Shown: positions 1-3,000 of the stretch, piece after piece | Position numbering within the stretch: the first letter of the stretch is position 1 | Layout: every line of letters begins with the position of its first letter | Source of the DNA: Escherichia coli | Lineage (GTDB): Bacteria; Pseudomonadota; Gammaproteobacteria; Enterobacterales; Enterobacteriaceae | Length of the DNA stretch: 19,069 nucleotides | Reading direction: 5' to 3' (one strand) | Assembly: GCF_003334815.1 (NCBI RefSeq) | Contig: NZ_QOWO01000053.1 | Made by a program: the position numbers

Positions 1-3000
1 TGCAGTTGCCATGTTTTACGGCAGTGAGAGCAGAGATAGCGCTGATGTCCGGCGGTGCTTTTGCCGTTACGCACCACCCCGTCAGTAGCTGAACAGGAGG
101 GACAGCTGATAGAAACAGAAGCCACTGGAGCACCTCAAAAACACCATCATACACTAAATCAGTAAGTTGGCAGCATCACCAGCATGATGTATTCAATTCT
201 GCTTATTATGTTTCCTGTGGTGTTATCCGCAGGCATAAACATATTATGAAGAGCATCCTCAAGCAGGATTCGGGTTAAATCAGCGGTGGATATGGCTAAT
301 TGTTCGCTCATTATCCCCAGAACTTCTCTTACCCCTTGTGGGTAACGGACCTGCAGTGGTGTCGGGTTTATCTGACGACCGTTGATGAGTTTTTCGCCGA
401 TTGCTTTTTTGTCCAGCGAGAGCATCATTCGGGCCGCAATACCGGTCGTATTCAGTCTCATTGTTCCTCCGACTGAAAAAGTCTTTTCAGCTCATGTGGT
501 TATTGTATCTTCGGTGTTTTTTCTGGTGAAACGAATAATTTCGATCATGCAGATCGAATGTGTTTGGCGAGTTGTTGCAACTCGCCTTTCTGTATGTGTT
601 TTGAATGATGCTTACAACGAGGTGCTGCCCGGGTTCAGAGGGCAAATCATAATGTAGTCAGGGGCGTCGACCGCGATATCAATGCGGCACTCAACATCCG
701 GCAAAAAGGAATACTGGAACTAAAGGCGGCGGGACTCGTCGTCTCTGCCTATGGAGGCCAGCGTAAATCCGTCGCACAGACGGTTGCGGCCTGAGAAGTG
801 GGAAGCCTCGCCCGACAGGGCGGAGAGCAGTCACTATTTGGATATCAAACTTAATTGAGCGTTACACACGACGCAATACAACCTGTCTTATGCTCGTATT
901 TGTACCATTTACGTGAACCTGCTGGGCTCTCAACTACCTGGCAGTAGTGGGCATCCTCTGCGTTGCCCATTCTGGCAATGGCACAGAAGTCGAATTGCCC
1001 CAGATAACCTGTGTTGGAAAGCTGAGTAACTTTGAGTTTTCCACCTATTGTCCTCCACGTACCGGATTGGCACGAAAGTATTGCCCCTGTATTATCGCGG
1101 CCTACAAGGCCGTTAGGCGAACATGATGCGCCAGCAACGGCAGTTCTTTCCAGTTGTAAGTATTCACCAGTATAAAGGCGACCATCAGCACGAACAGTAC
1201 CGCCTTTCACCTGACCGCCGGTATAGATGCCCTTGTTGTTTACACTTCGAACCCATGATCCGTCGGACATATAAAATCCGCCACCGTGAGTTTCATTGAG
1301 CCAGCCTTTGCTGTTACGAGTAATTAACCAACCATTATTACTTCTGATATCACCGCCAGCGGTGACATTTACGTCAAAGTTTCCGCTATTGCCTTTTACC
1401 TGACCGCTGAAAGTGCCATTTACACCATTCACATTGCCGCTGAAATTACCAGTCTGGGCATTTACTGCCCCAACGTTATTCAGGTTATTTGATCCCATAT
1501 CAATGGCCGTGTGCATTTTGTTTAAGTCAGGGCGACCATTGACCTGGAATCTGTAAAGACGATCAGTGTCCTCTGCTGCACCACTAAGTTCATCTGTCGA
1601 TAACAGTACGGCAATATGCCCGTTGCCGCTTTTGGCACCATAATTACTTAAAGCTACTGACCAGGAACGTAATGCACCTGTGGCTGTTTTGCCGTCCTGG
1701 ATATATCCACCAAGACCAGTGGTAATATCCTTAGCCATCTGGATAAGTGCTTTCACTGGATAAGGGGTGCCACCACTGGATACAACCATTGCCTGTAGTA
1801 ATTCCGGGTTTTGGGTGTTTCGAACTACATATGCCTGTAACCGCTGCCCCTCGCTGTTTGTCTCAGTAAAGCCGCTGGACAAAAAGCCGGTATTTTTCAG
1901 CATGGTTGTCGTGATAACGGCAGGGGTTGTTGTGGTACTACTGGCCTGGAGAGTTGTGTAGTTTTTCCCTATATAAGAGCGGGCTGCACTGGCCCAGTTG
2001 CTGACAAGACGAGCTTCAGCCTGCCAACCTTTGGTTTTTAAATAGTCCTGCCATATGCCTGCACCCCAGGCAACTATGATCATAACAATCAATAAAGCCG
2101 CGCCAATTTCCAGCGATGCCCAGCCTCGGTCATATTTTTTCATCAGATTACCCATAGTGGTTGATAAAGATTATCCAGTAGCAAAAGGACATGGCCAAGA
2201 CACAGCCATGGACCCAGTGGGCCTTCTTTATGTCCTTTTATGCACCATGTTGAATGCCATAAGACAAATCCTCCTGCGCCCAGCAACACACTCCATATGG
2301 CGTTATATAGCCCTGACCATGCGGTAATACCTGCAATAAGCCACAGGTCTCCTGTGCCAATATTAAGACGATGGCGGTTAACCAGTTTATGCAGACAGAA
2401 TAAGACAATTGCGGCAGAGACAATTTCTGTTGCACGGAGCCACCATATATCAGTTGTGATTTGTGATAATATTCCAGCGATTAAAAAACGCCTGGTGAAT
2501 GTACCAGGTAAGAGGCCTGTTAGTGCATCCGTTACTGCCATTTGCAGCATGAACGAAAGAATAAGAACAGCATGAATACGGTAGAGAAGTTGGGATGGCG
2601 ATAAAATAATTAATGCCACAGCTATACTATATAGCCATATTCCTGACAGAACTGCAGTGTGTGTCTTATACCAGAGATGTTCTGTATCAGATAAAAAATA
2701 ACGAACTCTGAATAACAGAGTTCGTCCAATAATGGAAAATATGAACATCAATGGGAGGATATAAACAGGGGAGAGACTTATGCCTACGATTGTCTGCATT
2801 GTCTGCCTCCCTGCCCGGGAAGGCATATCCCTTTCATGTCACGATAAATTCTCCATACTTTATTAGCATATTGCTCTCTTGTTTCATGTCTGTCCTTACG
2901 GAATCCGGCATTGTATGATCCAAGGCAATTCCAGCTGACGCCACATATCTGAAAATGTCTTGCCAGTATCCAGCTTCCTATATGGATATTAAGACATGGT

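Follow-up and report, generated by a model that had tools for sequence, protein, structure and literature searches.

The reading frame at positions 181-461 of the Escherichia coli DNA analysed here (the window: 19,069 nucleotides of contig NZ_QOWO01000053.1, assembly GCF_003334815.1) is best explained overall, and with high confidence, as part of traE, a transfer-region gene of an IncI-complex plasmid, from which IS1 has split off the 5′ third. The insertion sequence would have transposed into traE at codon 93/94 and divided the first gene of the traE-traF-traG block. The frame had been listed as unidentified. Alignment shows that it is the first third of this conjugative plasmid gene and not a chance ORF, since its residues 1-93 match annotated TraE with 100% identity.

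The traE fragment and its junction with IS1

The traE ORF is carried by the minus strand. It starts at an ATG (461-459), runs through 93 complete codons down to 183 and includes two more nucleotides (182-181) before IS1 is reached. Direct reading placed a Shine-Dalgarno-like GGAGGA at 470-465 (minus strand), 3 nt 5′ of the ATG, and a sigma-70 promoter-like site, TTCACC-17-TACAAT, was recognized upstream of traE on the same strand (502-530) by consensus match only. The left end of an IS1A-like IS1 occupies positions 1-180 (minus strand), and the element extends past the start of the window. Its left terminal inverted repeat IRL, GGTGATGCTGCCAACTTACTGAT, lies at 180-158 of the minus strand, and translation revealed the N-terminus of InsA from 125 down to 1, in the same orientation as the traE ORF. 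Codon 94, made up of traE and IS1 nucleotides, remains a Leu codon; it is followed by six codons from IS1 (VMLPTY) and by a TGA stop at 161-159, inside IS1. TraE 1-93, the junction Leu, VMLPTY and the TGA together form a chimeric ORF of 100 aa in the ORF listing (159-461, minus strand). The preliminary description had already seen a 93-codon frame with its own start entering the IS1 terminal repeat, and had taken the apparent stop for IS1 sequence; its coordinates and peptide proved right, the strand being minus.

A megablast search of window positions 181-860 against 72,556 plasmids (PLSDB) matched 1,526 records. Their hosts were almost all Escherichia, Salmonella, Shigella or Klebsiella, the plasmids were mostly conjugative, and the annotation beneath the ORF was 'traE: conjugal transfer protein TraE'. 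The 680 bp across the fragment were 100% identical to many IncI plasmids in which traE is annotated at 825 nt, 274 aa. The traE 5′ fragment (181-461, minus strand) holds codons 1-93 and 2 nt more, or 281 of these 825 nt, and is 100% identical to WP_094249181.1 over residues 1-93. In an uninterrupted relative, NZ_CP024292.1, traE (825 nt/274 aa) has pilV on one side and traF on the other, and next come a histidine phosphatase gene (traG), traH and traI. The neighbourhood here is the same: in the window, pilV is 390 bp away on the upstream side, and traF-traG-traH come next in the sibling record considered below and in related records.

TraE homologues formed 37 clusters among 5.8 billion proteins searched, and the complete members, down to 45% identity, all measure 272-274 aa. 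Full-length reference TraE matched the TraE cluster with E=1e-175, and the C-terminal two thirds have invariant residues over their whole extent, among them W110, N111, R113, W145, W160, W182, H183 and R201. Measured against these intact homologues, a comparison that had been proposed beforehand, the window keeps 34% of the gene length, and IS1 follows after 93 codons, so that the conserved C-terminal two thirds are missing from the frame. Homologues ending naturally at the same position had been named as the case against a truncation; the intact ones reach 272-274 aa instead. The idea that this traE frame is naturally short and intact, with IS1 inserted just downstream, has next to no likelihood. 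Short database entries do occur, but they are mostly fragment-length predictions and none is evidence of a naturally short TraE, whereas the full-length homologues are conserved to the C-terminus, the uninterrupted allele stays in frame beyond the insertion point, and the final six codons and the stop come from IS1. By these alignments the window allele is a disrupted traE, or pseudogene, rather than an intact member of the family, and the earlier claim of a gene truncated by IS1 stands.

The IS1-traE junction was present in one of the 72,556 PLSDB plasmids, the E. coli ECOR 3 plasmid RCS85_pI (NZ_LT985321.1), and was absent from 5,426 complete E. coli genomes. Over window positions 1-12700 this sibling record showed no mismatch. 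It carries a complete 768-bp IS1 with both terminal repeats, annotated 'IS1-like element IS1A family transposase', of which window positions 1-180 are the last 180 bp. A direct 9-bp repeat, AGCATGATG, is found on each side of the element; one copy of this target site duplication lies in the window, at 181-189, as identified by comparison with the sibling. On the traE strand the target site reads CATCATGCT and contains the Met93 codon. The flanks of IS1 overlap by exactly 9 bp on uninterrupted traE (4001-4009 of the reference record L001). Furthermore, removal of IS1 and one copy of the duplication from NZ_LT985321.1 restored an open traE of 274 codons that differs from the reference traE by one nucleotide. 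Beyond IS1 in the sibling, the rest of traE is intact and is followed by traF, traG, traH and onward. Read from this record, the event is a simple insertion and not a deletion, the distal 181 codons having been moved by 768 bp. Since the window begins inside IS1 and differs elsewhere from the sibling, this conclusion is drawn by proxy. The insertion is presumably recent.

An IS1-mediated deletion of the distal two thirds of traE, possibly with neighbouring tra genes, would make the fragment a dead end. The other end of IS1 does lie outside the window, and IS1-associated deletions are known in this block. We consider such a deletion very unlikely all the same, because the sole record with the same junction, identical over 12.7 kb, shows the 9-bp duplication and the remainder of traE right past the full element, with the tra genes continuing behind it. 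The known case concerns the plasmid of E. coli CH4793 (NZ_JBRBPW010000002.1, positions 1360-3435 of our record L012), in which an independent IS1B stands directly after an intact traE and replaces traF and the N-terminus of traG. This second hit indicates that the traE-G block has been struck repeatedly by IS1.

The window and NZ_LT985321.1 are colinear to position 16860, with one 1-bp indel, and diverge at 16938. At window 16938/16939 (position 79 of record L011) the sibling has a Tn3/Tn21-family transposon with a TnAs3-type tnpA between traA and repZ; the window is without it and runs into an intact IncI repZ region. As the two are otherwise nearly identical, the source of the window would be a sibling or an ancestor that already carried the traE allele split by IS1. 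Near the 3′ end of the window, a PK-repZ pseudoknot (RF01087; 17155-17303, plus strand; 194.5 bits) and an IncI-type repZ/repA gene (17271-18347, plus strand) confirm an I-complex replicon. A direct repeat of ~93 bp with ~97% identity (13134-13226 and 13848-13940), noticed through secondary BLAST matches, lies in the pilI/pilJ-traC region.

Loss of rci and of most of the shufflon beside pilV

Relatives with rci carry pilV, the shufflon and rci in this order, then 150 bp of intergenic sequence and traE; the gene order pilV-shufflon-rci-traE is that of the IncI1 plasmid pESBL (PMC4288162 Table 2). Window positions 462-611 are the rci-traE intergenic region, homologous to that of rci-bearing plasmids. 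Two hairpins are present in it (540-586, minus strand); the one at 558-540 resembles a minus-strand terminator and was probably that of rci. Positions 180-667 align with 4219-4706 of pCS0010A_95 (L003), where rci occupies 4651-5805, so the alignment leaves in the window only the last 56 nt of this shufflon recombinase gene (612-667, minus strand). A 167-bp remnant of an IS200/IS605-family element adjoins it at 668-834 (plus strand) and consists of the last 127 nt of tnpB, with its stop at 792-794, and 40 bp of the right end. This remnant is 96.4% identical to the 3′ end of the TnpB gene (WP_039022915.1) in pSLK172-1, and its translation reads ...DRDINAALNIRQKG...TVAA before the stop. An Rfam scan of window positions 1-1200 at E<=1 returned no RNA family, and no known omega-RNA or other RNA accounts for the tnpB remnant region.

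At about position 831 a shufflon segment begins, and it supplies the 3′ end of pilV. The pilV gene itself (851-2155, minus strand), which encodes the thin-pilus tip adhesin, is fixed with this one C-terminal segment. Where an active shufflon has an intact rci and multiple sfx sites, the window has 56 nt of rci and a single exact sfx recombination site, GTGCCAATCCGGTACGTGG, at 1055-1073 (minus strand) inside pilV. As the site lacks a partner and Rci is absent, inversion is impossible. The scar left by the deletion across rci and tnpB is common to ~127 PLSDB plasmids; it is therefore older than the IS1 event and independent of it, and PilV would be locked in one form across the whole lineage. 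An IS200/IS605 element evidently came in first, beside the pilV-proximal shufflon segment. A later deletion then took most of this element together with the further shufflon segments and almost the whole of rci, and PilV was thereby fixed in one form. An IncI1 plasmid lacking rci has been noted before (PMC8004404).

These data explain why rci or a shufflon segment had been expected where the ORF lies: traE stands at their place because rci and most of the shufflon had been lost earlier, in a deletion common to the lineage, which was not the doing of IS1. The ORF might for the same reason of position be read as a remnant of rci or of a shufflon segment and not as a transfer gene, as it starts 390 bp from the end of pilV, in the usual rci/shufflon place of IncI1 plasmids (PMC4288162 Table 2). 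This reading is extremely improbable. The rci remnant and the single sfx site sit elsewhere, at 612-667 and 1055-1073, and the ORF aligns to traE, which is found 150 bp past rci in the plasmids that bear it.

Predicted domains of TraE and consequences of the insertion

Family searches with TraE gave nothing significant in Pfam, NCBIfam or PHROGs, nor did a single-sequence search of PDB. Pfam returned no match even at E<=10, ribbon-helix-helix (RHH) and HTH_3 families being among those without a significant match, and in PHROGs 'transcriptional regulator' matches were obtained at E ~0.4 only. A profile search of 1.84 billion representatives retrieved 134 relatives, many of them 290-390 aa long and sharing residues ~30-170. 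The profile of the N-terminal domain matched CopG (E=2.3e-4) and MazE7 (E=8.3e-4), both modest E-values, and a second search gave weaker ones. Two designed repeat proteins (dTor) came top in that search and were dismissed as summed-repeat artefacts. The N-terminal pattern is predicted to be extended at residues 36-41, with helices at 44-55 and 59-75, a beta-alpha-alpha arrangement like that of RHH proteins, in a model of low confidence over residues 1-82. Residues ~85-150 form a predicted five-helix domain of the XRE/cro-C1 type that superposes on P22 C2, 434 repressor, SinR and similar proteins. Taken together, the predictions suggest that TraE combines an RHH module (~36-75) with an HTH domain of the XRE/cro-C1 type and, C-terminally, an alpha/beta domain.

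TraF of IncI1 plasmids, a barrel-like protein, matches Pfam TraF_2 at 8.6e-73. Distant TraE-like genes (~20-31% identity) were inspected in the three informative contexts (L007 6001-8319, L015 4754-7107 and L005 1888-3205), those of P0081 and P0086 being too short to be of use; in all three the very next gene is a TraF_2 homologue, 50-62% identical to TraF of IncI1 plasmids. The two with enough flanking sequence, L007 and L015, have an integrase nearby, and L007 also a TraI_2 relaxase. The two genes thus seem to form a conserved module that also exists outside IncI plasmids. Judging by the predicted folds, TraE most probably binds DNA and has a regulatory or accessory role; genetically it is paired with TraF.

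IS1 interrupts the predicted HTH domain within helix 1, so that the stub would keep only the predicted RHH module. We infer that the insertion inactivates full-length TraE and leaves a product of at most 100 aa with this N-terminal module. Just beyond the window, at ~11400-11412 of NZ_LT985321.1 (L002), the target duplication leaves an in-frame ATG (Met93) that starts the distal traE fragment, and 12 nt before this ATG the right end of IS1 contains a GGAG. Such an arrangement makes it conceivable that an HTH plus C-terminal fragment is translated from Met93. A more elaborate reading joins several of these elements. The stub, with its promoter-like site, its ribosome-binding site and a complete predicted RHH, would yield a 100-aa RHH-only DNA binder that alters transfer-gene expression, the allele being dominant-negative or constitutive rather than null, with an HTH plus C-terminal fragment possibly made via Met93. 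TraE itself would be an uncharacterised RHH+HTH regulator acting with outer-membrane TraF, the two genes forming a conserved accessory module in IncI plasmids and in some integrative elements. As a joint proposition we regard this as unlikely.

IS1 insertions are classically polar, and expression of the downstream traF and traG may therefore be reduced. In the R64 mutational analysis of Komano et al. in 2000, traE-G were reportedly not among the essential genes. A TnSeq study of pESBL, an IncI1 plasmid, rated genes by how probably transfer can do without them and gave 0.93 for TraE, 1.00 for TraF, 0.79 for TraG and 1.00 for Rci (PMC4288162 Table 2), values obtained in laboratory mating with a plasmid different from that of the window. 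Since traE, traF and traG are dispensable in this related plasmid, the insertion should, by analogy, affect conjugation little, and no effect would be expected under laboratory conditions. The natural replacement of traF and the start of traG by IS1B in the CH4793 plasmid fits a block that tolerates damage.

Elsewhere in the window, a C4 antisense RNA (Rfam RF01695) was detected at 16214-16301 (minus strand) with 77.5 bits, against a gathering score of 45; this places it immediately upstream of traA, on the stretch separating that gene from the repZ leader. Its site may coincide with the 'Hft' region of pESBL, disruption of which raises transfer of that plasmid (PMC4288162).

Significance and comparison with known systems

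The split of traE by IS1 is an ordinary event of an already known kind, in which a common insertion sequence has entered a dispensable plasmid gene; what is mildly new is limited to the domains predicted in TraE and to the rci/tnpB deletion scar as defined here. An annotation gap is closed by assigning the ORF to traE split by IS1, and the odd adjacency of traE and pilV is accounted for by the loss of rci and the shufflon. The IS1-traE junction and the rci/tnpB scar can serve as lineage markers for following this plasmid family. For a gene that is carried without an assigned function by thousands of resistance plasmids, a testable hypothesis is now available: TraE would combine RHH and HTH domains and be accompanied by TraF_2 across mobile elements.

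The TraE of the F plasmid and pKM101, a VirB8-like inner-membrane component of type IV secretion systems (Pfam PF05309), shares only its name with IncI TraE. The latter gave no match to the TraE/VirB8 profile PF05309, and its predicted fold is RHH + HTH and not VirB8-like; the VirB8 homologue of MPF_I systems is TraM (PMC4027160). The original annotation of traE in pESBL as 'F pilus assembly' (PMC4288162 Table 2) results from this clash of names. By its predicted folds TraE resembles XRE/cro-C1 domains and, with the CopG and MazE7 profile matches, may resemble RHH proteins of the CopG/MazE/DinJ type. It would be set apart from known RHH/HTH proteins by the predicted tandem of RHH, HTH and a TT1805-like C-terminal domain, for which the searches made found no described architecture.

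Compared with other IncI1 plasmids that have no rci or a fixed pilV, the window is alike in missing rci and in keeping a single pilV C-terminal segment. It differs in having a defined scar, in which 56 nt of rci meet the 167 bp left over from tnpB and the right end. As an IS1 (IS1A) insertion mutation, the allele shows InsA and a 23-bp terminal inverted repeat within the window, and in the sibling the 768-bp length with a 9-bp target duplication; nothing in it is unusual, and the site occurs in one public record only. With TraE of IncI1/IncI-complex plasmids (R64, ColIb-P9, pESBL; NCBI 'conjugal transfer protein TraE'), the window gene has in common residues 1-93, the upstream intergenic region, the ribosome-binding site and the place upstream of traF-traG-traH. 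Unlike these, it is split by IS1 after codon 93, so that only the 5′ 281 nt remain in the window and the end of the ORF is that of IS1.
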